Positions 1-12,714 of a DNA stretch of 62,112 nucleotides are shown one piece after another (the first letter of the stretch is position 1; each line of letters starts with the position of its first letter). Source of the stretch: Candidatus Omnitrophota bacterium (GTDB lineage: Bacteria > Omnitrophota > Gorgyraeia > Duberdicusellales > 4484-171); contig JAIPGM010000010.1 of NCBI GenBank assembly GCA_021735655.1, positions 1 through 62,112 on the forward strand, read 5' to 3'. The notes beneath the pieces are model-generated. The model worked only from the letters and a program-made list of their open reading frames with translations. It was not told the origin of the DNA and did not search any database. Both the position numbers and the translations under genes were made by a program.

Positions 1-138
1 CCTTTACGGGGTCAATTAAGCCCCAGAAAAACAATACAACCTATAACCTATCTACTCTGTGACTATCTATTTATTCTACTGATAATCCAGAGTTTTCACC
101 AACTATCATTGAACAATTATCGTATCATCTCCTTTAAT
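1..138. repeat. Left copy of a perfect 138 bp terminal inverted repeat (reverse complement of 61974..62111)
   Basis: Compared directly: bases 1..138 equal the reverse complement of 61974..62111, with one extra base at 62112. The first ~20 nt can form a small hairpin (GGGGtcaattaagCCCC). Confidence 0.9.
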
Positions 139-150
139 ATTGCATAAACC

Positions 151-260
151 CTTGATAAATGTTAATTTATCAAGGGTAAATTCGACTAAATCCTTGACAT
201 TCGAAATGTCAAGTACAAGTCTCATTTACAATTGTAAAACATTATTTGACAATTGTCAAG
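151..260. promoter_or_regulatory. Cluster of four palindromic operator-like sites sharing TTGACA/TGTCAA half-sites
   Basis: CTTGATAAAT-gtta-ATTTATCAAG (151..174); TTGACAT-tcgaa-ATGTCAA (194..212); TTTACAATTGTAAA (225..238); TTGACAATTGTCAA (246..259). The last two are near-identical 14-mers with centres 21 bp apart. Confidence 0.5.
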
Positions 261-332
261 TATAAATTTTAATATTTTGTCGAAAAAAAAGGTCCAATTT
301 CATTGACAAAATGCAAATTAGCACTATTTTCC

Positions 333-361
333 TTGCCGATACTCAGTTAAACCGCTATAAT
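333..361 (+). promoter_or_regulatory. Sigma70-like promoter (TTGCCG-17 nt-TATAAT) upstream of the ORF starting at 395
   Basis: -35 TTGCCG at 333..338, 17 nt spacer, -10 TATAAT at 356..361, about 34 nt upstream of the TTG start at 395. Confidence 0.4.
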
Positions 362-394
362 AGGGCTGTTAGAAGTAGTTAAAAAGGGAAATGA

Positions 395-841
395 TTGGAG
401 AATAAGTTGAAGAAGATCGTGGTTACAGGCTGTTTATTGTCGGTTATAACCCTGCTTTTGAGTTTTAGTTTGGCAGAGGCTAAGAGCAAAGGTAAGTTTC
501 TACCTTCGAGTGAGGAGTTTTTAGGTCCCGAAGGTAAGTTTAAGGAAAGTTCTAAGGATTTAAAATTAGAAAAAAAAGAGTTTTTAGGCAGTTCAAGTGA
601 TATTGGTTTTGATTCAGTCGAAGTTAAGCCATCAACAAAGGAGTTAATGAATTATAAGTATCGGGCTGTTGTCATTGATCGAAAATATTATTTGTTTGGA
701 AAAAGACGTTCTGTATCGAGTGGAAAGTTTGCCCTTTCAGAGTCGGTAAGCTCTTCGAGTTTTAATTCTTCAAGTTATGATTTTTTACCGTCTAGTAGTG
801 AATTCAAGGTTAAAAAAAGAAAAGGTAAGGCTGGTCGTTAG
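395..841 (+). CDS. Secreted repetitive hypothetical protein (signal peptide ending LAEA; repeated K-G-K-F-L-P-S-S-E-E-F-L type motifs)
   Basis: ORF with TTG start and a hydrophobic N-terminus (LLSVITLLLSFSLAEA). Internal repeats near the N- and C-termini (KGKFLPSSEEFL / YDFLPSSSEFKVKKRKGK). No family recognised. Confidence 0.4.
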   Translation: MENKLKKIVVTGCLLSVITLLLSFSLAEAKSKGKFLPSSEEFLGPEGKFKESSKDLKLEKKEFLGSSSDIGFDSVEVKPSTKELMNYKYRAVVIDRKYYLFGKRRSVSSGKFALSESVSSSSFNSSSYDFLPSSSEFKVKKRKGKAGR

Positions 842-860
842 GTTAAGTTAGGAGGTGGGT

Positions 861-1226
861 ATGGTTGGATTGGTTAAGTTAGTTGGTATGGCTGTTTTTG
901 CTCTCGGAGTAATTTTTTTCTTAAAACCAGACCAGATAAAGAAATGGTTAAATTTTTGGATGCAGGAGAACCATCTTTACATGGGTGGGTTGTTGAGCAT
1001 TTTAGTTGGCATTGTTTTTCTGATTGCCGCTGCTAGATGTAGCATTCCTTGGATTATTGTTGTTTTCAGCATTATGAGCTTAATTAAGGGTGTGGCCTTG
1101 TTTGCCTTAGGTTCTAAAAAGGTAATTGCTTTCGCCGAAAAGTTTACTAAACGTCCGCCAAAAGCTTTGCGCCGGTTTGCGATACTATCTTTAGCTTTTG
1201 GAGTTTTGCTCATCTACGCTGCTTAG
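861..1226 (+). CDS. Small integral membrane protein, three to four predicted TM helices, function unknown
   Basis: AGGAGG SD at 850..855, 5 nt before the ATG at 861. The listed ORF starts at an in-frame GTG at 855. Hydrophobic throughout. Followed by a rho-independent terminator. Confidence 0.5.
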   Translation: MVGLVKLVGMAVFALGVIFFLKPDQIKKWLNFWMQENHLYMGGLLSILVGIVFLIAAARCSIPWIIVVFSIMSLIKGVALFALGSKKVIAFAEKFTKRPPKALRRFAILSLAFGVLLIYAA

Positions 1227-1247
1227 GAAATAAGTTGCATATGCAAA

Positions 1248-1285
1248 GGGAACGGATCTGTTGATAGACCCGTTCCCTTTTTTTA
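1248..1285 (+). terminator. Rho-independent terminator (GGGAACGG-loop-CCGTTCCC followed by T7)
   Basis: GC-rich 8 bp stem at 1248..1255 / 1269..1277, followed by TTTTTTT at 1278..1284. Confidence 0.75.
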
Positions 1286-1305
1286 TTGGAAGCGTTTACA
1301 GTCAG

Positions 1306-1371
1306 GCACCTCCTAGTTATTGATTCGTTTCATTGCTAGCGATAGAATAATAGTAGGTAGAAAGGAGGTGC
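1306..1371 (+). promoter_or_regulatory. Possible anti-Shine-Dalgarno sequestering hairpin (GCACCTCCT ... AGGAGGTGC) in front of the small ORF at 1375
   Basis: 9 bp perfect inverted repeat at 1306..1314 and 1363..1371. The downstream arm is the SD (AGGAGGTG) of the ORF at 1375. Confidence 0.35.
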
Positions 1372-1374
1372 GAA

Positions 1375-1554
1375 ATGTTAAAAAACAAAGAGGAGAGAAT
1401 AAGAATTTTTCAAGTAGTTAGCTTGGGTGAGGAGTTAGCTTGCGAAGAGATTGCAAAGATTTTAAAAAAAGATATAACTTTGAATCCCGAGAAGCCAGAT
1501 GTTTATTTTACGGTTACTGAGCATCCCGAAGAAAGCATTGTGGTTAAAGGTTAA
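1375..1554 (+). CDS. Small hypothetical protein (59 aa, MLKNKEERIRIFQVVSLGEELACEEIAKILKKDITLNPEKPDVYFTVTEHPEESIVVKG), absent from the ORF track because of its length
   Basis: Strong SD AAGGAGGTG 4 nt upstream of the ATG at 1375. Open frame to the TAA at 1552..1554. Confidence 0.4.
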   Translation: MLKNKEERIRIFQVVSLGEELACEEIAKILKKDITLNPEKPDVYFTVTEHPEESIVVKG

Positions 1555-2039
1555 CCAAGGACTGAATGAACCCAATCACCGATATGGTGAGCGAGGATAA
1601 TTACAACTAGGGCTATTAAAAGGTGTTCTGCGACAACCTTCCAGGGGCGTTTTTCTTGGCCTCGAGCAATATAAAAATTAAAGGCAACTAGAAGCAGAAT
1701 CCCCCAAAATACACTCAGGGTGATTGCGGTTTTAAGCTTTAAGAGTAATAGGGGGGCTATAAAACTGAGAGAAACAATAAATTTTGAGAGAAAGGTGTAG
1801 ATAGTTGTTTCCCATATTTCTTTGTGGCTATGTTTGTTTTCAGCCTCTTCAGAGACATGTATGCCTAAAGCATCACTGAAAGCATCAGCTATCGCAATGA
1901 TTATTATCCCGCCGATAACCGCTAATCTCGAGTTAGTTCCTGAATGTAGTCCGACCATAAGTCCGAGAGTAGTAATAATGCCGGAAGTTAGGCCAAAGCT
2001 TACTCCGGTTTTAATTTGGTGTTTCATGATATTAATCAT
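1551..2039 (-). CDS. Integral membrane protein, possibly VIT1/CCC1-like (iron/manganese transporter family)
   Basis: 162 aa and hydrophobic. Gly-rich TM motif GLTSGIITTLGLMVGL and acidic AIADAFSDALG resemble VIT-family segments. This assignment is tentative. Confidence 0.4.
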   Translation of the reverse strand: MINIMKHQIKTGVSFGLTSGIITTLGLMVGLHSGTNSRLAVIGGIIIIAIADAFSDALGIHVSEEAENKHSHKEIWETTIYTFLSKFIVSLSFIAPLLLLKLKTAITLSVFWGILLLVAFNFYIARGQEKRPWKVVAEHLLIALVVIILAHHIGDWVHSVLG

Positions 2040-2302
2040 AACAGAATTTTCTTTTTTCGTCTAGCCCGAAGTTATTTTTAAAGATAGTTTCTATTTTTCT
2101 AAAAAAATCTTGACATTTTTTATAATTTTGTTATCCTTTATTCTAAGTATTTATGGTGGAGATGACAAAGGCGTCCTTTTTACTTACAGCGAAGTGAAGG
2201 GGCGCTTTCACTATTTTTGAGGGGTTCATTTTTTTTGACTTAGAATGCACAAAAATTGGGCACTTTTTTTACAGCGTTTAATCAACTGGGAGGTAAAAGT
2301 AA

Positions 2303-5300
2303 ATGGCAAGACGCAAAGATATTAAAAAAGTTTTAATTATTGGTTCTGGTCCGATAATCATCGGCCAGGCGTGCGAATTTGACTATTCTGGCACTCAAGC
2401 TTGCAAGGCTTTAAAAGAAGAGAGCTATGAGGTAGTTTTAGTTAACTCTAATCCAGCCACGATCATGACCGATCCTGGTACAGCTGATAAAACCTATATT
2501 GAACCTCTGACTATAGAAAGTCTAGAGGAAATTATTAAAATTGAAAGGCCTGATGGTCTTTTGTCTAATTTGGGTGGTCAGACCGGGCTTAATCTTTCAT
2601 CAGGTCTTTTTAAAACCGGTATTTTAGAGAAGTACGGTGTTGAGATTATTGGGGTTAAGGCTGACGCTATTGAAAGAGGCGAAGATCGTATTGCTTTTAA
2701 AGAGACAATGAATAAGTTGGGCATAGAAATGGCTCGTTCTGCTCCTAGTCATTCAGTTGAAGAAGCTGAAAAAATAGCCTCAGAGTTGGGCTATCCGGTA
2801 GTTTTGCGTCCAGCTTACACCATGGGGGGAACCGGAGGAGGAATTGCCTACAATGTTGAAGAGTTAAGAACGATAGTGGCTAGAGGTTTGGCGGTAAGCA
2901 TAGTTAATCAGGTTTTGGTTGAAGAGTCAGTTATTGGTTGGGAAGAACTAGAGCTGGAAGTGGTCCGTGATGCTAATAATAAAAAGATCACTGTTTGCTT
3001 TATCGAAAATATTGATGCGATGGGGGTACATACTGGAGATAGTTTTTGTACTGCACCAATGTTTACGGTGCCGGAGAAGCTACAAAAGCGGATGCAAGAG
3101 CTTTCTTATAAAATTGTTGATGCGATAGAGGTTGTTGGCGGTACTAATATTCAGTTTGCTCATAATCTAGTTGATGATCGTCTGGTGGTAATTGAGATTA
3201 ACCCTCGAACCTCACGTTCCTCAGCCCTAGCTTCTAAAGCTACTGGTTTTCCGATTGCCCGGATTTCAACCAAATTAGCAGCCGGATTAACCCTGGATGA
3301 AATTCCTTATTGGAGAAAAGGGACTCTTGATAAATACGAGCCTTGGGGCGACTATGTGGTAATTAAATTTGCCCGTTGGGCTTTTGAGAAATTTCCGGCG
3401 GCAAAAGATGTTTTGGGTACACAGATGAAGGCAGTTGGAGAGGTAATGAGCATAGCCAAAACTTTTAAGGAATCGTTTCAAAAAGCGATTCGTTCTTTAG
3501 AAAGTAAAAGGTATGGTTTAGGCGGAGCAAAGAATTTTAAAGAACTTTCTTTAGACAAACTAAAAGAAAAATTAGCTCAGCCTTCCAGTGAGCGGGTGTT
3601 TATTATTTATGAGGCTTTGCGTAAAGGGATGAGCGTTGAAGAGCTTTATCAGCTAACCTTTATCGGTCGTCAGTTTCTTAAGGAGATGCAGGAGTTAGTT
3701 CAATTTGAAGAGGAATTACTTAAAAGTTCATGGAAAGACTTACCTAATGAAAAATTAGCTAAAGCTAAAGAGTGGGGTTTTTCTGACCGTTATCTAGCCG
3801 GATTGTTTAATATTAAGGAAAAAGAAGTTAGAACTAAACGTTTGGCCATTGGAAAAAAAGTTGCCTATGAGCCAGTTCCGGTCAGTGGTGTGGAAAATGC
3901 CGCTTATTACTATTCAACCTATAATGCTAAAGATAAAGTTGAAGTTTCCGATAATAAAAAAATAATGATTTTGGGTGGCGGACCTAATCGTATTGGCCAG
4001 GGTATTGAGTTCGACTATACCTGTGTGCATGCGGCTTTTACTCTTCGTGATGAAGGCTATGAATCGATAATGGTCAATTGCAATCCCGAGACAGTCTCTA
4101 CTGATTATGATACTTCTGACAAGTTATATTTTGAGCCTTTAACCATTGAAGATGTTTTAGCAATCTACGATAAAGAAAAGCCGATTGGAGCAATTGTTCA
4201 ATTTGGAGGTCAAACTCCTTTAAACTTGGCTAAAGAGTTAAAAGAAAATGGGGTAAATATTCTTGGTACAACACCGGAGAGTATAGATTTGGCCGAAGAC
4301 CGAGAGCGTTTTCGAGAAAAGATGATAAAATTGGAAATTCCTCAACCAGAAAGCGGCACAGCAAGATCACTCGAAGAAGCTTTAAAGATTGCTAGAGAAA
4401 TTGGTTTTCCGCTGATGGTTCGACCTTCCTATGTGCTTGGTGGTCGAGGTATGGAGGTTATCTATGATGAAGAAGCTTTACAAAAGTACGCCAAGGAAGC
4501 AATAAAGGTTAGCCCGGAGCATCCGATGCTTATTGATAAGTTTCTAGAGCATGCGGTTGAAGTTGAGGTTGACGCCTTGGCTGATGGTCAAGATGCTTTT
4601 GTTGCTGCGGTTATGGAGCATATTGAGCTAGCTGGAGTTCATTCCGGAGATTCGGCCTGTGCCATACCTACTAGAACTGTTACTCAGGAGCAGCTAAAGA
4701 CAATAGACGAATATACGGTTAAGATTGCCAAAGAACTTAAGGTAATTGGATTAATGAATATACAGTATGCTATTTGTGATGATAAAGTTTATATCTTAGA
4801 GGCAAATTCTAGAGCTTCACGTACAGTTCCGATTGTTTCTAAGATTACTGGAACCTCTATGGCTAGGATCGCTACTCAGCTTATGCTTGGTAAAAAGATT
4901 GCAGATTTCCCTGAACTAAAAACTCGAAAGTTACCTTATGTCGGAGTGAAGGAAGCGGTTTTTCCTTTTAATATGTTTCCTGAAGTAGATCCGTTGCTAG
5001 GTCCTGAGATGAGGGCAACTGGGGAGGTTATGGGCATTGGCGAAACTTTTGGAGCGGCTTTTTATAAGGCTCAGGCTGCAGCCGGTACTGCTTTACCTTT
5101 AGCTGGTAATGTTCTTTTGACCGTGAATGATAAGGATAAGTCGGAGCTGCTACCGATTGCTAAAAAAATTAAAAAGTTAGGGTTCAATATTTACACTACT
5201 GAGGGGACAAGTAGCTTTTTGGAAAAAGGGGGCGTAGAGAGTATTTTGATAAAAAAGTTGCATCAAGGAAGACCGAACATTGCAGATTTGATAAAAAATA

Positions 5301-5506
5301 AAGAGATTCATTTAGTTATCAATACTCCCGCTGGACGTAACAGCAAGCATGATGATAGCTATATTCGAATGCTAGCTATCCAACAGAAAATTCCTTATAT
5401 AACATCAATGGCTGCTGCTCAAGCCAGCGTTGAGGGAATAGAATCTGCTATCGGCGCGAAGTGTCCGCCAAAGTCTTTACAGGATTATTACCGGTTGCTT
5501 GTTTAA
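2303..5506 (+). CDS. carB: Carbamoyl-phosphate synthase large subunit
   Basis: 1067 aa with two ATP-grasp halves, each with a conserved glycine-rich signature ([19 protein letters not shown]; [17 protein letters not shown]), and a C-terminal MGS-like domain. No carA is adjacent. Confidence 0.95.
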
Positions 5507-5519
5507 TTTGGAGAATATA

Positions 5520-7037
5520 ATGGTAAAAAAAATCGGTTTTGATAATGAGAAGTATTTAGAAGAACAGAGCCAGGCAATTCTTGAGCGGGTGGAAAGGTTT
5601 AATAATAAGCTCTATCTAGAGTTTGGTGGAAAAATCGTTTTTGATTATCATGCTTCAAGAGTTTTACCGGGATTTGATCCTAACGTGAAGATGCGGCTTT
5701 TGCAAAAGTTGAAAGATAAGGCCGATATTATTCTTTGTATCTATGCTGGCGATATTGAAAGAAGAAAAGTGCGAGCCGATTTTGGCATTACCTATGATGT
5801 CGACGCGCTTAAGCTGATAGATGATTTAAGAGCTTGGGAGATCAATGTTGCGGCAGTAGTGATTACTCGTTTTGAAGATCAGCCTTCAGCAATAATTTTT
5901 AAAAATAAACTCGAGCGGAGAGGAGTAAAGGTTCATACTCATCGATTTACTAAGGGCTATCCTACTGATGTAGATTTGGTAGTTAGTGATAAAGGCTATG
6001 GTGCAAATGCCTATATTGAAACCGAAAAGCCGTTGGTCGTGGTCACCGGACCTGGCCCAGGGAGTGGAAAGTTAGCTACCTGCCTTTCTCAGTGTTATCA
6101 TGAGTACAAAAGAGGCGTAAAGGCTGGCTACGCTAAGTTTGAAACTTTTCCAATTTGGAACATCCCGCTTAAACATCCGGTAAATATTGCCTATGAGGCA
6201 GCTACTGCTGATTTAAGAGATTTTAACTTAGTAGATCCTTTTCATTTGGAAACTTATGCTGAGACATCAATCAATTACAATCGCGACGTAGACGCTTTTC
6301 CCTTGTTGCGGAGAATTTTAGAAAAGATAACTAAGGACGAATCGTTTTATAAATCTCCGACTGATATGGGGGTGAACCGAGCTGGATTTGGGATTGTTGA
6401 CGATGCAGTCGTTAGGGAAGCAGCCAAACAAGAGATTATTCGCAGATATTTTCGCTATCGTTGTGAATATGTAATGGGTTTTGTTGATAAGGGAACAGTT
6501 GAAAGATGCGAATTGGTAATGAAAGAGCTTAAACTTGATCCTCAAGACAGAGTAGTAGTTGCCCCGGCCCATGAATCTGCTAAGCAAGCACAGGGCAAGG
6601 GTAAAGTTAACGGAGATATCTTTTGCGGTGCAGCTATCGAGTTAAAAGACGGATCAATCGTAACCGGAAAGAACTCTTCTTTAATGAATGCTCCTTCAAG
6701 TTTAATTTTAAATGCGATAAAAGAATTGGCCGAAATTCCTGATAAGATTCATCTATTATCACCGGTAATACTTAAATCGATTGAAGATTTAAAGAAGAGT
6801 TTATCTAGTAGTGCTGATTTGAGCTTAGATTTAGAGGAGACACTTATTGCTTTAAGTATAAGCGCGACTACTAATCCAACTACCCAGTTAGCTATAGAAA
6901 AGTTAAAAGAATTAAAAGGCTGTGAAGTTCATACGACGCATATTCCGGCCCCCGGCGATGAAGCCGGTTTAAGGAGTTTAGGGGTTAATCTTACTAGTGA
7001 CCCTAATTTTTCTTCTAAGAGTCTTTTTGTTGTATAA
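5520..7037 (+). CDS. Conserved ~500 aa protein of unknown function, probably the DUF1846/UPF0371 family
   Basis: Start taken at the ATG at 5520 ([12 protein letters not shown]...), 5 nt after a GGAGA SD. The listed ORF begins at an in-frame ATG at 5499 that overlaps the carB stop. Family call is from memory of the UPF0371 N-terminus and length, not verified. Confidence 0.55.
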
Positions 7038-7080
7038 GTACAACTAAGTTCTGAAAACGATTTGATTAGGAGGTAAAGCT

Positions 7081-8529
7081 ATGAGTGGAATTTTTGGAGC
7101 AGTTTCTAAAAATAATTGTGCAGAGATTATACTTTATGGTACAGATTATCATTCGCATTTAGGAACTGAATACGGTGGCATGGCAGTGTTAGGTGAGACC
7201 TTCCAGCGGCAAATACACAATATTGCCCAAACTCAATTTAAATCTAAATTTTATGATGAATATAAGCAGATGAAGGGCAATAAGGGCATTGGTGTTATAA
7301 GTGCTCTAGAAGAGCAGCCGATGTATTTAAATTCTAAATTTGGCCCTTTTTGTATTGTTACTAATGGATTAATTGAGAATATTTCTGAATTAGCAAAAGA
7401 TCTTCTTAGGGGGGGGGTTTCTTTTACCGAGATAAGCAAATATGAAGTTAACGAGACTGAACTAGTAGCAAAGTTAATTAATCAAGGTAAAGATTTAATT
7501 GATGGTATCGAGCAAGCGTTTGCTAAAATTCAAGGATCTTGTTCTCTTTTATTGCTTAATAAGGATGGTGTATATGCTGCTAGAGACAAGTTCGGCTACA
7601 CTCCGCTTGTAGTCGGCCAGCGTGCTGATGCTATGGCAATTACATCAGAAAGTTGTAGTTTTGTGAATAATGATTTTAAAATAGTTAAATATTTAGAACC
7701 GGGCGAGATAGTTTTAGTTACCGAAAAGGGAATGGAGCAGAAGAAACCCGGTGGCAGCACTAATCAAATTTGTGCTTTTTTCTGGATTTACACTGGATTT
7801 CCGGCTTCAAGTTACGAAGGTATCAATACCGAAATCGTAAGGGAGCGTTGTGGTCGTCAGCTTGCCCGTGGCGATAAAGATATAGAGGTAGATGTTGTTT
7901 CAGGAGTTCCTGATTCTGGGGCAGCTCATGCTATTGGTTATGCTATCGAGAGTGGTAAACCTTACCGCAGACCTTTAGTTAAATATACTCCCGGATATGG
8001 CCGTAGTTATATTCCACCTTCTCAAGTTACCCGCGATTTAATAGCGAAGATGAAACTAATTTCGATTAAGGAAATTATTGATGGCAACCGAATCGTTGTT
8101 TGTGAAGATTCAATTGTTCGGGGAACTCAATTGAAGAATTTTACCGTAAAAAAACTTTGGGATTCAGGAGCTAAGGAAATTCATGTTCGGCCGGCTTGTC
8201 CGCCGCTTATGTTTCATTGTCGATTTAACCTTTCAACTCGCAGCAGTGACGAGCTTGTAGCTCGTCGGGCAATCCGAAGCTTGGAGGGTCGCGATATAAA
8301 AGACTTATCCGAGTACCTTGATCCGAATTCTCAAAAATATAAGGAAATGTTGGATTGGATTGCCAAGGATTTACAAGTTACCACTCTTAGGTATCAAACC
8401 GTAGACGATATGGTTGAGGCAATCGGCTTACCTAAGGAGAAACTTTGTCTTTACTGCTGGACCGGTGAATGTCCAGGATCAAAGAGCTGCGACCAAAATA
8501 GTTGTTCAACAGGTTGCCAAACAAAGTAA
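7081..8529 (+). CDS. Amidophosphoribosyltransferase (PurF)-family protein with Ser replacing the N-terminal nucleophile Cys (MSGIFG) and a C-terminal Cys-rich tail
   Basis: Strong SD (TAGGAGGTAAAGCTATG). Class II GATase fold motifs (KGIGVISAL, FCIVTNGLIENISEL), a PRTase motif (VVCEDSIVRGTQL) and a PP-loop region (DVVSGVPDSGAAHAIGYAIESGKPYRRP) align with E. coli and B. subtilis PurF. The C-terminus is CLYCWTGECPGSKSCDQNSCSTGCQTK. Confidence 0.75.
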   Translation: MSGIFGAVSKNNCAEIILYGTDYHSHLGTEYGGMAVLGETFQRQIHNIAQTQFKSKFYDEYKQMKGNKGIGVISALEEQPMYLNSKFGPFCIVTNGLIENISELAKDLLRGGVSFTEISKYEVNETELVAKLINQGKDLIDGIEQAFAKIQGSCSLLLLNKDGVYAARDKFGYTPLVVGQRADAMAITSESCSFVNNDFKIVKYLEPGEIVLVTEKGMEQKKPGGSTNQICAFFWIYTGFPASSYEGINTEIVRERCGRQLARGDKDIEVDVVSGVPDSGAAHAIGYAIESGKPYRRPLVKYTPGYGRSYIPPSQVTRDLIAKMKLISIKEIIDGNRIVVCEDSIVRGTQLKNFTVKKLWDSGAKEIHVRPACPPLMFHCRFNLSTRSSDELVARRAIRSLEGRDIKDLSEYLDPNSQKYKEMLDWIAKDLQVTTLRYQTVDDMVEAIGLPKEKLCLYCWTGECPGSKSCDQNSCSTGCQTK

Positions 8530-8552
8530 ACTAGGTTAAAAAATCGATTATA

Positions 8553-8597
8553 AATGAATAAGGCGTTTCTCCTAATACGAGAAACGCCTTATTCATT
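8553..8597 (+). terminator. 19 bp perfect hairpin (AATGAATAAGGCGTTTCTC-ctaatac-GAGAAACGCCTTATTCATT) downstream of the purF-like gene; no canonical U-tract
   Basis: Perfect inverted repeat at 8553..8571 / 8579..8597. A second, weaker hairpin followed by a T-run lies at 8620..8643 (ACGGA-gagaggg-TCCGT then ggcTTTT). Confidence 0.45.
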
Positions 8598-8827
8598 AAG
8601 AAGACCCCCCTCCCCGAAAACGGAGAGAGGGTCCGTGGCTTTTGACTCTCTAGGACAGAGAGCCTTCACTAAAGGATAACATCTTTTTCCCTTGTGTTTC
8701 AAGAGGTTATGAAAGTATTCGTGAAAACGCTTACAAGGGTTAAATTTGAATATAGTTGCTGTTTTTTATAAAATAACTCAATAAAACCGGGTATCTCTAT
8801 TTCTATCTTATTCAGCTAACATTTTTC

Positions 8828-8856
8828 TTTACAATTTAATTAGTGCAGTGTATAAT
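8828..8856 (+). promoter_or_regulatory. Near-consensus sigma70 promoter (TTTACA-17 nt-TATAAT) for hisG
   Basis: -35 at 8828..8833, exactly 17 nt spacer, -10 TATAAT at 8851..8856. hisG ATG is at 8898. Confidence 0.5.
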
Positions 8857-8897
8857 CTAACCTCGTTGAGACATAAACTATTAAATAGTATAAGATT

Positions 8898-9773
8898 ATG
8901 GATGTATTAAAGTTAGGCATACCTAAGGGAAGTTTACAGGAAAAAACCGTCGAGCTTTTTCGGATGGCCGGTTTTAATATCTATACTAGCAGTCGGTCGT
9001 ATTTTCCGACTATCGACGATTCTCAGGTAAAGGTGGTTATGGTTAGGGCTCAGGAGATGTCTCGCTATGTTGAAGAAGGAGTACTTGACTGCGGGATCAC
9101 CGGAGAAGATTGGGTTTTAGAGAATTCATCGGACGTTTTACGTTTGGCTGAACTGCGTTATGCAAAACGCACGCTTAATAAGGTACGTTGGGTAGTTGCA
9201 GTAAAGGATGATTCTAAAATAAAGAAGCTAGCCGATTTGAAGGGCAAGCGCATCGCCACCGAACTTTTAGGTTATACTAAAAAGTTTTTTAAAGCTAAAA
9301 AAATACCGGTTGATGTTGAGTTTAGTTGGGGGGCAACTGAAGTTAAGGTAAAAAGCGGTCTAGTTGATGCGATTGTTGAGCTTACTGAGACCGGTGAATC
9401 GCTTAGAGCCAATGGTTTAAAGGAAATCGCTACTATTTGTTTGTCGAGTACTCAATTTATCGCTAATAAATTAGCAGTAAAGAATAGCTGGAAGAAAAAG
9501 AAAATTGACTATATACTTTTACTTTTGAAAGGAGCCTTAGAGGCTCGTGATAAAGTGGGTTTGAAACTTAATATTAGGAAAGAAAATTTGGAAGAAATAT
9601 TAGCGCTTTTGCCAGCCTTAAAGAAGCCAACTATTTCTTCTTTAACTTTAAAAGATTGGGTTGCTTGTGAAGTAATTATTGAAGAAAGCCGGGTGCGCGA
9701 AATTCTGCCGCTTCTTAAAGAAAAAGGAGCCCAAGGAATTATCGAATACCCCTTAAATAAAGTTATTTATTAA
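8898..9773 (+). CDS. hisG: ATP phosphoribosyltransferase, long form with C-terminal regulatory domain
   Basis: 291 aa. N-terminal LKLGIPKGSLQEKTVELFRMAGF and DCGITGEDWVLE motifs are typical of HisG. Its length matches the long (HisG-L) form. No other his genes are nearby. Confidence 0.85.
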   Translation: MDVLKLGIPKGSLQEKTVELFRMAGFNIYTSSRSYFPTIDDSQVKVVMVRAQEMSRYVEEGVLDCGITGEDWVLENSSDVLRLAELRYAKRTLNKVRWVVAVKDDSKIKKLADLKGKRIATELLGYTKKFFKAKKIPVDVEFSWGATEVKVKSGLVDAIVELTETGESLRANGLKEIATICLSSTQFIANKLAVKNSWKKKKIDYILLLLKGALEARDKVGLKLNIRKENLEEILALLPALKKPTISSLTLKDWVACEVIIEESRVREILPLLKEKGAQGIIEYPLNKVIY

Positions 9774-9782
9774 GAGGATAGT

Positions 9783-9872
9783 ATGCCTTGCGGAAAAAAA
9801 AGAAAGCTAAAGAAAGTTAAAAGACATTGGTTTAAAAAAAGAAGAAAACAGCAAAGACACAAGTCTAAATAA
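9783..9872 (+). CDS. Tiny, extremely basic ORF (29 aa: MPCGKKRKLKKVKRHWFKKRRKQQRHKSK), not in the ORF track
   Basis: AAGAGGA SD 6 nt upstream of the ATG at 9783. 19 of 29 residues are K/R/H. TAA at 9870..9872. Confidence 0.3.
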   Translation: MPCGKKRKLKKVKRHWFKKRRKQQRHKSK

Positions 9873-9961
9873 TAGCTTATTTTTATCTTGGGTTCCATGC
9901 TCTTTTTCTATTTTATATTTAAAAAACGCCACCTTACTTGGAGTTAAAGCAAGGAATAAAA

Positions 9962-10954
9962 GTGAAGCCTATAACTGGGTTAAAACTTAACCCAAAACAT
10001 CTTCTGGTCTGCTTATTGGCTGTATTTCTTGTGCCTTCCTTTTTAGTTTCTCCTTGTTTTTCTAAAAGCCGAAAAAATGTTACTAAGCTTTATAGTGATT
10101 ATCTAAATGGTCTTCATTATTTCCAGCGAGGGGAGTATGAGACCGCATTGGATAGTTTTAGGGCTGCTAAAGATAAGGATCCTGATTCGGTTCATCTCTC
10201 TTTGAAGCTAGCCGCAGCGTTAATCCGTTTAGAACGAATGGATGAAGCCGAAGAAGTTTTGCTCAAAGCAAAAAAGGCTGACCCTGATAATCTTGATATC
10301 TCCTTAGTTTTAATTTTTATTTACTCTTTAACTCACGACGATCAACAGCTTGAAGTCGAATACGAAAATTTTTTAAAGAAGGCTCACGAATTAAAACCAA
10401 AAGATCTCGGAATTTCTGAATATTTAGCTCAGTTTTATTTTTACAAAAATAAACCTACCGAGGCAATAAAGGTTTATGAGAAGATTCTTGAAAGCAACCC
10501 GAATCATGTCGGAGCAATTTTTTGGTTGGGCTATCTTTATGATGAGTCTGGCCGACGTAAAGAGGCAATTGATGTTTGGAAAAAGGGGCTGGCAATTGAT
10601 GAGTCACACGCTCCGATTCTAAATTCATTAGGTTATGTTTATACCCTTGAGGGTGAGAATCTCGATCAGGCAAAAACAATGATCGAAAAAGCTTTAGAAC
10701 AAGAACCGGAAAATGGCGCTTATCTTGATAGCTTAGGTTGGGTTTATTTTAAACTGGGTAATTTAGAAAAAGCTAAAGAATATCTAGAGAAAGCAATAGC
10801 CAACATCAAGGATCCGGAAATATTCGAACATTTAGGTGATCTTTATGCTGAGACTGGAGAACCGGCTAAAGGCCTTGAGTACTATAAAGAAGGTTTAGCT
10901 CATTTTCCCAATCACAGCTCTTTAAAGAAAAAGATTGAGCGCTATGAAAAATAA
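9962..10954 (+). CDS. Secreted/lipoprotein-like TPR-repeat protein
   Basis: Signal-like N-terminus (LLVCLLAVFLVPSFLVSPC), then multiple TPR-like repeats. Start taken at the GTG at 9962, preceded by AAGGA. The listed ORF starts at the TTG at 9938. Confidence 0.6.
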   Translation: MKPITGLKLNPKHLLVCLLAVFLVPSFLVSPCFSKSRKNVTKLYSDYLNGLHYFQRGEYETALDSFRAAKDKDPDSVHLSLKLAAALIRLERMDEAEEVLLKAKKADPDNLDISLVLIFIYSLTHDDQQLEVEYENFLKKAHELKPKDLGISEYLAQFYFYKNKPTEAIKVYEKILESNPNHVGAIFWLGYLYDESGRRKEAIDVWKKGLAIDESHAPILNSLGYVYTLEGENLDQAKTMIEKALEQEPENGAYLDSLGWVYFKLGNLEKAKEYLEKAIANIKDPEIFEHLGDLYAETGEPAKGLEYYKEGLAHFPNHSSLKKKIERYEK

Positions 10955-11783
10955 AACTGAGTTTTTAAAGAATAAAGCTAACGATATCAGAAAGCTTATT
11001 ATCCAAATGTTGGCTGAGGCTGGCTCTGGCCATCCCGGAGGATCGCTTTCTTCAGCTGACATAATTGCTTGTCTTTATTTTGAGGTTTTAAACCATGACC
11101 CTAAGAATCCTGCTTTGGTTGATCGTGATCGATTCCATCTTTCTAAGGGGCATTGTTGCCCGGCAGTTTATGCAGCCTTAGCTTTAAGTGGATATTTTCC
11201 TAAGCAAGAGATATTTACTTTGAGAAAATTCGGTTCTATTTTACAGGGGCATCCTGATCGAAGAACTCCTGGCATTGAGGTGGCCAGTGGATCCCTCGGA
11301 CAGGGAATTTCGGTAGCTTTAGGCATGGCTTTGACTGCTAAGCTTGATAAGAAGAGCTGGCGGACATATTGTCTTATTGGTGACGGAGAGAGCCAGGAAG
11401 GAAACATTTGGGAGGCAGCAATGGCTGCGGCTCATTTTAAGTTGGATAATTTATGTGTGATTGTCGATTTTAATCGTTTTCAAATTGATGGTCGGATAGA
11501 AGAGGTGATGGCGCTTGAGCCCTTAGTAAATAAGTGGGAGTCGTTTGGTTGGCATGTTATTGAATGTGACGGTCACAATGTTGAAGAACTGGTCCAGGCT
11601 TTTGGTAAGGCAAGAACAGTTACTTTAAAGCCAACGATAATTGTTGCTCATACGGTCAAGGGTAAAGGGGTTTCTTTCATGGAGCATGTTGCTGATTTTC
11701 ACGGAAGAGCTCCGACTGAGAAAGAAAAAGAAGTTGCCTTTAAGGAACTTCAAGATATTGAACAGGACGAAAAAGAGTTATAA
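10935..11783 (+). CDS. Transketolase, N-terminal (TPP-binding) subunit of a split enzyme
   Basis: 282 aa with a GSGHPGGSLS motif and the TPP-binding region GDGESQEGNIWEAA. Confidence 0.85.
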   Translation: MSAMKNKTEFLKNKANDIRKLIIQMLAEAGSGHPGGSLSSADIIACLYFEVLNHDPKNPALVDRDRFHLSKGHCCPAVYAALALSGYFPKQEIFTLRKFGSILQGHPDRRTPGIEVASGSLGQGISVALGMALTAKLDKKSWRTYCLIGDGESQEGNIWEAAMAAAHFKLDNLCVIVDFNRFQIDGRIEEVMALEPLVNKWESFGWHVIECDGHNVEELVQAFGKARTVTLKPTIIVAHTVKGKGVSFMEHVADFHGRAPTEKEKEVAFKELQDIEQDEKEL

Positions 11784-11784
11784 T

Positions 11785-12714
11785 ATGGAAAAGCTATATG
11801 CACGAGACGTTTACGGCCAAACTTTAGTTGAGCTGGGTAATAAAGACGAAAATTTAATTGTTCTTGATGCTGATCTTTCCGGATCAACTCGAACCGTTTT
11901 TTTTCAGCGAGAATTTCCTGAACGGTTTTTTAATTTTGGCGTTGCTGAGCAAAACATGATGGCTGCCGCAGCTGGTATGGCCAGTTGCGGAAAGATTGTT
12001 TTCGCTTCAACTTTTGCTATGTTTGCTACGGCTAGGGCTTTGGACCAGGTACGAAATTCTATTTGTAGTAATAACTTTAATGTTAAGATTGTCGCCACTC
12101 ATGGCGGGATAAGTGTTGGTGAGGACGGAGCATCTCATCAAGCTTTAGAAGATGTAAATTTTTTCAGGGCTATTCCGAATATGCGGATAGTGGTTCCGGC
12201 TGACGGACCTCAGACAAGGGAAGCGGTCATTGCCGCTTATGAGGCTCAGGGTCCAATCTATATTCGTTTGGGACGCTCAAAAGTTCCTACCTTAGAGAAT
12301 AAAAGTAAGTTCATTCTTGGTAAGGGCCAGATTCTCGCTTCCGGCGAAGGCCTGGCGATTATTGCTTGCGGAGCCATGGTTCAAGAGGCATTGGCTGCCC
12401 GTCAGATTCTTGAAAAAGATCAAATATCGCCAACTATAGTTAATATGCATACGATAAAACCGATTGACGAAGAGTTACTTATAGATATAGCTAAAAGTCA
12501 TAGCAAGATTCTTGTTTGCGAAGAACATCAAGTTCGTGGAGGTCTGTTCTCAGCAGTGGCCGAAGTTTTAATTCGCAAACAACCGATTCAGACCGAATGC
12601 ATTGGGGTCCAAGATTCGTTTGGGCAATCAGGATCGCCTAAGGAGCTCATGGATTTTTATGGTCTCTCCTCTGATTGTATCGCTGAAAAAGCGAAAAAAC
12701 TCATGCGGCAGTAA
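11785..12714 (+). CDS. Transketolase, C-terminal (pyrimidine-binding/C-terminal domain) subunit
   Basis: Start set at the ATG at 11785 (MEKLYARDVYGQTLVELG...), immediately after the stop of the N-terminal subunit. The listed ORF extends upstream to 11641 in-frame. Confidence 0.85.
   Translation: MEKLYARDVYGQTLVELGNKDENLIVLDADLSGSTRTVFFQREFPERFFNFGVAEQNMMAAAAGMASCGKIVFASTFAMFATARALDQVRNSICSNNFNVKIVATHGGISVGEDGASHQALEDVNFFRAIPNMRIVVPADGPQTREAVIAAYEAQGPIYIRLGRSKVPTLENKSKFILGKGQILASGEGLAIIACGAMVQEALAARQILEKDQISPTIVNMHTIKPIDEELLIDIAKSHSKILVCEEHQVRGGLFSAVAEVLIRKQPIQTECIGVQDSFGQSGSPKELMDFYGLSSDCIAEKAKKLMRQ

Follow-up and report, generated by a model that had tools for sequence, protein, structure and literature searches.

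PurF is a textbook N-terminal nucleophile (Ntn) glutamine amidotransferase and catalyses the committed, feedback-controlled step in purine synthesis. Homologues without the N-terminal cysteine (Cys1) have been described for Crenarchaeota as PurF' paralogues, the genes of which are situated near purF and other pur genes and for which ammonia-dependence was proposed without a test (Brown et al. 2011, Biol Direct 6:63, PMC3261824); a further Cys-less homologue, Mlab_0150, carries Ser (PMC3261824). In E. coli PurF, replacement of Cys1 by Ser or Ala (C1S, C1A) leads to the loss of the glutamine-dependent activity, whereas the ammonia-dependent activity is kept (Mei & Zalkin 1989, cited in PMC3261824). 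The gene described here lies on a contig stretch of 62,112 nt (the window) of a Candidatus Omnitrophota bacterium (GCA_021735655.1, JAIPGM010000010.1), at 7081..8529 (+ strand, stop codon included), and encodes a Cys-less PurF-like protein of 482 amino acids (aa), as recognized from its open reading frame (ORF), its homology to PurF, and a structure model. Judged from its sequence, it belongs to a large monophyletic group of PurF proteins lacking Cys1, to which we apply the name PurF' as well, and which is characterized by the motifs M-[S/G/T/A]-G-x-F-G … YGTDYHSHLGT and RGTQ and by four iron-sulfur (Fe-S) cysteines. The gene probably represents a widespread glutaminase-less, ammonia-dependent PurF variant, situated beside the gene of a homologue of an ammonia-only CTP synthase.

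The protein is a full-length homologue of PurF. Its best relatives among solved structures are those of B. subtilis PurF (1gph and 1ao0, E around 1e-53), the next being PurF structures from plants, from other bacteria, and from E. coli. An AlphaFold2 model (mean predicted local distance difference test score [pLDDT] 85.3, predicted template modelling score [pTM] 0.85) can be superposed along its whole length on B. subtilis PurF, with template modelling (TM) scores of 0.81/0.85 against 1ao0_A across around 480 columns in the Foldseek superposition. The N-terminal Ntn-fold domain, i.e., the former glutaminase domain, comprises aa 2-225 (7084..7755, +; alignment to the PurF N domain), and the only Pfam match of the protein, GATase_7, extends over aa 75-193 within it. 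The start of the gene is unambiguous, because an in-frame TGA is situated five codons 5' of the ATG (the frame reads ...TI-stop-LGGKA-MSGIFG), such that no hidden upstream Cys could be recruited. A strong ribosome-binding site (GGAGG, 7069..7073, +) is found 7 nt 5' of the ATG, and AGGAGG-like sites precede the MSG or MGG start in nearly all related loci.

Concerning the glutamine site, the HMMER alignment to 1gph reveals a series of replacements. The second codon, AGT (7084..7086, +), places Ser2 at the position of the Cys1 nucleophile, in line with the preliminary description of the stretch, in which Ser had been read as the first residue after Met. Arg26 is replaced by Leu27, which belongs to the family signature DYHSHLGT (aa 22-29, 7144..7167, +), invariant in the family alignment and standing in place of the ..LQHRGQ.. 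segment of PurF. Within KGIGVISAL (aa 68-76, 7282..7308, +), Ser74-Ala75 are found opposite Arg73-Tyr74 of the glutamine-site motif HVRY, and Asp127 is replaced by Glu125. The sole glutaminase-site feature kept is the oxyanion pair, Asn101-Gly102 in PurF and Asn95-Gly96 here, at the beginning of NGLIENISEL (aa 95-104, 7363..7392, +). Even this pair is not constant in the family, in which Gly96 and Asn100 are conserved, whereas D, A, S, or V is found in relatives in place of Asn95; the equivalents of Asn101 and Asp127 (positions Asn95 and Glu125) vary across the clade, even within its Ser-type members. The motifs of both domains had initially been regarded as well conserved. KGIGVISAL, NGLIENISEL, and VVCEDSIVRGTQL are all present, but for the glutamine amidotransferase (GATase) part this holds only by half: Fold and NG pair persist, whereas Cys1, Arg26, the Arg of HVRY, and Asp127 are replaced. 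The score against the purF equivalog model TIGR01134 amounts to 206.6 bits versus a cutoff of 350. In three defining respects, namely Cys1, the residues of the glutamine site, and this equivalog score, the protein departs from a glutamine amidotransferase PurF.

The Ser codon AGT differs from the Cys codon TGT in one base only, and a sequencing error had been named as the consequence if close relatives all carried Cys. They carry Ser: Among the 120 best matches in a collection of 5.8 billion proteins (74-87% identical; from Omnitrophota, Planctomycetota/Phycisphaerae, NPL-UPA2, and unnamed metagenome-assembled genomes [MAGs]), the N-terminus is MSG in 119 and MNG in one. In a second set of 80 metagenome loci retrieved with the family alignment (51-77% identity), Ser is found at the Cys1 position in 58, encoded by AGC in 34 and by AGT in 24, but never by TCN, and Gly in 19, all of which are more distant. 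Ser is strictly kept in all members with at least 56% identity; at around 55% identity to the query, Ser (AGY) gives way to Gly (GGN) in one transition, with the rest of the motif unaltered. An artefact, be it a TGT to AGT error or a decaying pseudogene, can therefore practically be dismissed, as Ser recurs in independent assemblies, two synonymous codons are used over 58 loci, and the ORF is intact, equipped with a ribosome-binding site, and 74-87% identical across phyla. Sequencing error and miscalled start are likewise ruled out as candidate explanations by the N-termini of the homologues, by the codon usage, and by the upstream in-frame stop.

The wider family was assessed by a search of 1.84 billion representative proteins, the nearest clusters being 34-66% identical and having the N-terminal signature M-x-G-[ILF]-F-G … C13 … Y-G-T-D-Y-H-S-H-L-G-T in common. 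Cys13 of this signature (7117..7119) is around 90% conserved in the Cys-less family and is also present in some Cys1-bearing relatives with RGTQ. Among 56 representative clusters with intact N-terminus, 31 carry Gly directly after Met, 20 carry Ser, four Thr, and one Ala, whereas Cys does not occur. In a neighbour-joining tree, all DYHSHLGT proteins, the Ser-type ones included, form one clade apart from the PurFs with Cys1 and Arg26, and within it the S, G, T, and A types are interleaved.

Ser can be the nucleophile in other Ntn hydrolases, and it had accordingly been proposed that Ser2 might substitute for Cys1 in a mechanistic variant; the enzyme would then still be an amidotransferase for glutamine or another amide. 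The invariance of Ser in members with at least 56% identity and the presence of Asn95-Gly96 in the window protein would fit this proposal. Nevertheless, we regard it as very improbable, because Gly, Ala, and Thr repeatedly stand in the place of Ser in the same motif of one clade, because the equivalents of Arg26, Arg73, and Asp127 are lost while Asn95 and Glu125 vary among the Ser types, and because E. coli PurF C1S is inactive with glutamine (PMC3261824). An N-terminal residue invariant across the family, as would be expected of Ntn hydrolases with a Ser or Thr nucleophile, is not found here, and Ser2 is almost certainly not an Ntn nucleophile. What S, G, T, and A have in common is their small size, and each of them allows excision of the N-terminal Met. 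In the simplest reading, the position needs only a small, processed residue, such that the first beta-strand starts buried in the Ntn sandwich.

Apart from the DYHSHLGT clade, a second Cys-less PurF-like group (MAGL.GLS…FYQQH, with Ala, Val, or Ser at position 1; P0213, P0214, P0227, P0229, P0247, and P0252, one of them from Patescibacteria) was observed. Since other Cys-less groups branch apart from the clade, Cys1 has probably been lost more than once.

The type I phosphoribosyltransferase (PRTase) domain with the C-terminal helices (aa 226-462, 7756..8466, +; alignment to PurF) is intact and exhibits the loop for 5-phosphoribosyl 1-pyrophosphate (PRPP) VVCEDSIVRGTQ, the flexible loop KYTPGYGRSY…, and the pyrophosphate (PPi)-binding GVPDSG. 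The flexible catalytic loop KYTPGYGRSYIPPSQVTRDLIAKMK (aa 301-325, 7981..8055, +) is situated opposite KNRYVGRTFIQPSQALREQGVRMK of B. subtilis PurF, and the PRPP-binding loop VVCEDSIVRGTQL (aa 339-351, 8095..8133, +) contains the RGTQ of the family versus RGTT in classical PurF; RGTQ is found also in relatives bearing Cys1 and Arg26. In family alignments of members 38-85% identical to the query, on which the statements on invariance are based, R254, D278-S279-G280, K301, R308-S309, R318, K325, D343-S344, and R347-G348-T349-Q350 are invariant or nearly so. The same applies to the four [4Fe-4S] ligands, which are invariant in the family and present in Cys1 PurFs as well: Cys231 (7771..7773, +) opposite the Cys of ICSMEY, which is the first of the cluster ligands in B. 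subtilis PurF, Cys380 (8218..8220, +), and Cys456-x-x-Cys459 (8446..8457, +), with CLYC opposite CLAC. The protein thus has the complete set of cluster ligands that marks the B. subtilis-type (Fe-S) PurFs. The earlier suggestion that the protein is not a dead enzyme is borne out by the invariance of PRTase residues and Fe-S ligands and by relatives that fill the purF slot of pur operons; as far as such conservation can indicate, the window protein is not dead.

Nor is the ex-glutaminase domain, by the same kind of evidence, decaying. The ratio of mean pairwise identity between the N domain and the PRTase domain is 0.92 in the family, compared to 0.87 in Cys1 PurFs, and the N domain possesses invariant polar residues of the family's own (D22, Y23, H24, H46, and N124), whereas H26 is common to PurF.

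The Cys-less family is large, comprising hundreds of clusters at 50% identity and one 90%-identity cluster with more than 3000 sequences; a member from Muribaculaceae (Bacteroidales) exists as well. Same-strand neighbours of purF' were clustered within ±4 genes in 80 loci (74 metagenome loci and six others; labels L004-L097 denote loci retrieved for comparison). Recurrent ones are CarB (9/80 loci), PurM (8/80), a class II Cys1 amidotransferase (7/80; canonical PurF in six, GlmS in one), PurS-PurL and a LOG-family protein (5/80 each), and PurQ, PurB, and DUF1846 (4/80 each).

In two Ser-type loci (L031, L051), the order is purB-purSL-LOG-(purQ)-purF'-purM, with purF' in the classical purF slot, and two shorter loci (L050, L045) show the purF' end of it. 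The Gly-type branch (43% identical to the query; Clostridia, Evtepia; MGGFFG start in 114/120) includes four clostridial loci with the order purE-purC-purF'-purM-purN-IMP cyclohydrolase-purH-purD, two of which run on into purL, and no second PurF homologue was seen within these four loci. Such an operon would make no sense if the one PurF-like gene in it were unable to provide phosphoribosylamine. As a side observation, the IMP cyclohydrolase in these operons is of the archaeal type (PF07826) and stands beside an AICARFT-type PurH gene (L091 11326-12039, L092 11074-11799, L093 11033-11725, L094 5925-6662). Likewise, the LOG-family gene (PF03641, a 'lysine decarboxylase-like' nucleotide phosphoribohydrolase) between purSL and purQ or purF' is found in L044 (6534-7223) and also in L043, L050, L051, and L031.

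A canonical Cys1 purF is situated within two genes of purF' in six loci (L009, L011, L016, L017, L043, and L044). Four of these, which are Phycisphaerae-like (L009, L011, L016, L017), exhibit the order purF(Cys1)-purM-purF', and their upstream purF is canonical in type, with propeptide, Cys1, Arg26, HVRY, NG, Asp127, and RGTT. A conserved protein of around 340 aa without Pfam match always follows purF' on the same strand in these four (L009 9527-10564; also L011, L016, and L017). L044 possesses the order purB-purSL-LOG-purQ-purF'-purF(Cys1), with the stop of purF' overlapping the start of purF, and the shorter L043 shows the same stretch from purSL to purF. Such loci point to the main rival explanation, according to which PurF', as a paralogue without catalysis of its own or with an auxiliary role, enters mixed oligomers with canonical PurF (itself a dimer or tetramer) and tunes the activity or feedback control of the latter, comparable to HisZ and HisG. 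In archaea, too, purF and purF' adjoin each other (PMC3261824), and the strong constraint on an N domain without glutaminase residues could be understood in the same way. However, a silent subunit would not need the PRPP-binding and catalytic-loop residues, all of which are invariant, PurF' is the only PurF homologue in the four clostridial pur operon loci, and most loci possess no canonical purF adjoining purF'. We consider such a partner role unlikely for the family.

In the window, purF' closes a tightly spaced array regarded as one operon, preceded by carB (2303..5506, +; carbamoyl-phosphate synthase large chain, recognized by its Pfam families), which is the first gene, and by a DUF1846/PyrJ homologue (5520..7037, +; 565 bits for Pfam DUF1846, 772 bits for PRK13663). 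For the PyrJ protein of S. pneumoniae (Spd_0310, DUF1846), genetics and purified protein revealed a CTP synthase that uses ammonia, not glutamine (bioRxiv 10.1101/2024.09.24.614635). A carA homologue was not found in the 62-kb window by tblastn, and carB stands without adjacent carA. The order carB-pyrJ-purF' is shared with four other loci (L006, L008, L040, L095), while pyrJ-carA-carB-purF' (L097), carA-carB-purF' (L012), and carB-purF' (L004, L018) are found elsewhere; in relatives, glutamine synthetase and glutamate dehydrogenase genes are situated just upstream. Because the association of carB, pyrJ, and purF' recurs in several orders, the clustering appears to be selected and not to reflect inherited synteny alone.

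Directly 3' of the purF' stop, two stable hairpins are predicted (8553..8631, +; a perfect stem of 19 bp, then a GC-rich stem; RNA fold -47.7 kcal/mol, z = -7.7), neither of which exhibits a clear U-tract; they probably mark the end of the carB-pyrJ-purF' transcription unit. A promoter-like site near consensus (8828-8856) precedes hisG, downstream of which tkt, ispE, spoVG, glmU, and prs follow. An Rfam search of positions 1..12000 yielded no riboswitch (purine, ZTP, PRPP). As observed further downstream (10935..12714, +), transketolase is split into genes for an N- and a C-terminal part, after which ispE, spoVG, glmU, prs, L25/Ctc, and pth are arranged; the order spoVG-glmU-prs-ctc-pth resembles a Firmicutes-like arrangement, though the window stems from an Omnitrophota MAG.

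The neighbours carB, pyrJ, and hisG, together with the lack of pur genes, would also fit a different PRPP-dependent reaction outside purine synthesis, with another nucleophile or with another amide donor handled by the remodelled N domain (DYHSH), an explanation relevant to the carB-linked members. It would account for a TIGR01134 score below the cutoff, for RGTQ in place of RGTT, and for the family-specific invariant polar residues of the N domain. Yet purF' is found repeatedly, and in no fewer than two lineages of phylum rank, exactly where purF would stand in a pur operon, RGTQ occurs in the Cys1- and Arg26-bearing relatives as well, and genes of an alternative pathway are not consistently linked to it, such that we find a reaction of this kind quite improbable.

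For PurF' as a whole, we consider it reasonably probable, with activity and nitrogen donor both deduced from sequence and gene context, that it is a glutamine-independent phosphoribosylamine synthase fed by free ammonia. PRPP would be bound at the conserved PRTase site and converted with NH3 to 5-phosphoribosylamine and PPi. As the glutaminase chemistry is gone, the nitrogen would be free ammonia taken from solution, and no glutamine would be hydrolysed. The Ntn-fold domain may be retained as a lid or channel above the PRTase site, its remodelled pocket (D22, Y23, H24, H26, and H46) possibly forming an ammonium entry or a regulatory site, and the [4Fe-4S] cluster would be kept as in B. subtilis PurF. 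In support of an ammonia-dependent PurF' we count the alternation of Ser, Gly, Thr, and Ala at the Cys1 position in one clade together with the loss of Arg26, Arg73, and Asp127, the invariant or nearly invariant PRTase residues and cluster Cys, the PurF fold, the pur-operon slot in relatives, the linkage to carB and pyrJ, and the precedent of E. coli C1S and C1A.

Several points weigh against an ammonia-dependent PurF'. The 62-kb window contains no other pur genes, so that purF' is situated there outside any pur operon, and the TIGR01134 cutoff is missed by the window protein. In those loci in which a canonical purF stands beside purF', a heteromeric or regulatory role is equally compatible with the arrangement. 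Conservation of the N domain is on a par with that in genuine PurFs, and the domain has gained invariant polar residues of its own, whereas a purely passive lid would seem to require less. Finally, in the literature searched, which yielded Brown et al. (2011) and the PyrJ preprint, we found no characterisation of the bacterial DYHSHLGT family and no biochemical data on any member; databases label the family plain amidophosphoribosyltransferase.

A more far-reaching version of the ammonia-dependent reading is put forward only tentatively, as a possibility we would not favour at present: PurF' might serve major anaerobic lineages (gut Clostridia and Bacteroidales, Omnitrophota, and anaerobic Planctomycetota) as their principal or even only phosphoribosylamine synthase, run directly on ammonium via a remodelled, still functional N domain in which D22-Y23-H24-H26-H46 would stand in for the glutamine pocket and capture or gate ammonium, and might form with PyrJ and CarB a glutamine-independent module of nucleotide synthesis.

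Concerning the C-terminus, seven Cys had been counted in the last 27 residues CLYCWTGECPGSKSCDQNSCSTGCQTK. The number is six, but the enrichment as such stands, being well above the protein background of 2% Cys (P around 1e-5). C456 and C459 account for two of these and are the usual C-terminal cluster ligands. The remaining four belong to the variable tail ECPGSKSCDQNSCSTGCQTK (aa 463-482, 8467..8526, +). Cys464, in place of the Tyr of canonical …TGKYP, is found in 112/120 close homologues and is absent in more distant members, whereas C470, C475, and C479 vary or are missing in 103/120. Residues 467-482 have a pLDDT below 50 in the AlphaFold2 model and are predicted to be disordered. The equivalent tail of close homologues is 5-42 aa long, rich in K, A, and P, and usually poor in Cys, with three or more Cys in 17/120; one Omnitrophota subgroup exhibits a recurrent C-S-x-x-C ending. 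The idea that the surplus Cys serve as further cluster ligands is not supported, as only the canonical four are conserved. We also considered whether the tail might provide another site for Fe-S or Zn, but this is unsupported, since the tail is poorly conserved and residues 467-482 are predicted to be disordered. Lineage-specific metal binding may occur in the C-S-x-x-C subgroup. We infer that the Cys-rich tail is a lineage-specific, variable appendage, dispensable for the core mechanism.

What makes the family of general interest is that a natural lineage has given up glutaminase chemistry, while PRTase site, Fe-S cluster, and operon position of purF have all stayed. If PurF' is active, the database name glutamine amidophosphoribosyltransferase implies a nitrogen donor that is incorrect for many anaerobes of gut and sediment, and metabolic models would have to couple purine synthesis to ammonium instead of glutamine. 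In view of the operon link to PyrJ, nucleotide synthesis independent of glutamine may be an organised strategy.

The closest characterised enzyme to the window protein is the B. subtilis-type PurF (EC 2.4.2.14; 1ao0, 1gph), with which it has the two-domain fold (around 29% identity), the PRPP loop, the flexible loop, the PDS motif, and all four [4Fe-4S] Cys in common; location in pur operons is shared by relatives of the window gene. Unlike that enzyme, the window protein possesses no propeptide, carries Ser for Cys1, has undergone the losses in the glutamine site, and exhibits DYHSHLGT, RGTQ, and the Cys-rich tail.

Cys-less Ntn-type domains kept next to an active synthetase or transferase domain are known from other homologues of class II amidotransferases, e.g., from beta-lactam synthetase. 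The latter (PDB entry 1m1z) is a distant Foldseek match of the window protein model; it differs from PurF' in its C-terminal domain (Asn-synthetase type) and in its pathway.

PyrJ follows the same logic as that proposed for PurF', i.e., a glutamine-independent counterpart of an amidotransferase step in nucleotide synthesis; however, fold and reaction of the two are unrelated, and the activity has been experimentally shown for PyrJ, whereas for PurF' it is a deduction. The E. coli mutants C1S and C1A constitute the engineered equivalent of the natural Cys-less state, with NH3-dependent phosphoribosylamine synthesis retained (PMC3261824), but they keep the remaining glutamine site, whereas in the natural family this site is remodelled and under selection.

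The closest described concept to the bacterial family is that of the Cys-less PurF' of Crenarchaeota and of Mlab_0150, which have the loss of Cys1 in common with the window protein and were compared here by their published description only. With respect to the features by which Brown et al. (2011) recognized PurF', the window protein is a PurF homologue without Cys1, and a location near purF or pur genes is found in L009, L011, L016, L017, L043, L044, L031, and L051, but not in the window. The crenarchaeal proteins are archaeal and carry mostly Ala or Val, whereas the bacterial DYHSHLGT members carry Ser, Gly, Thr, or Ala.

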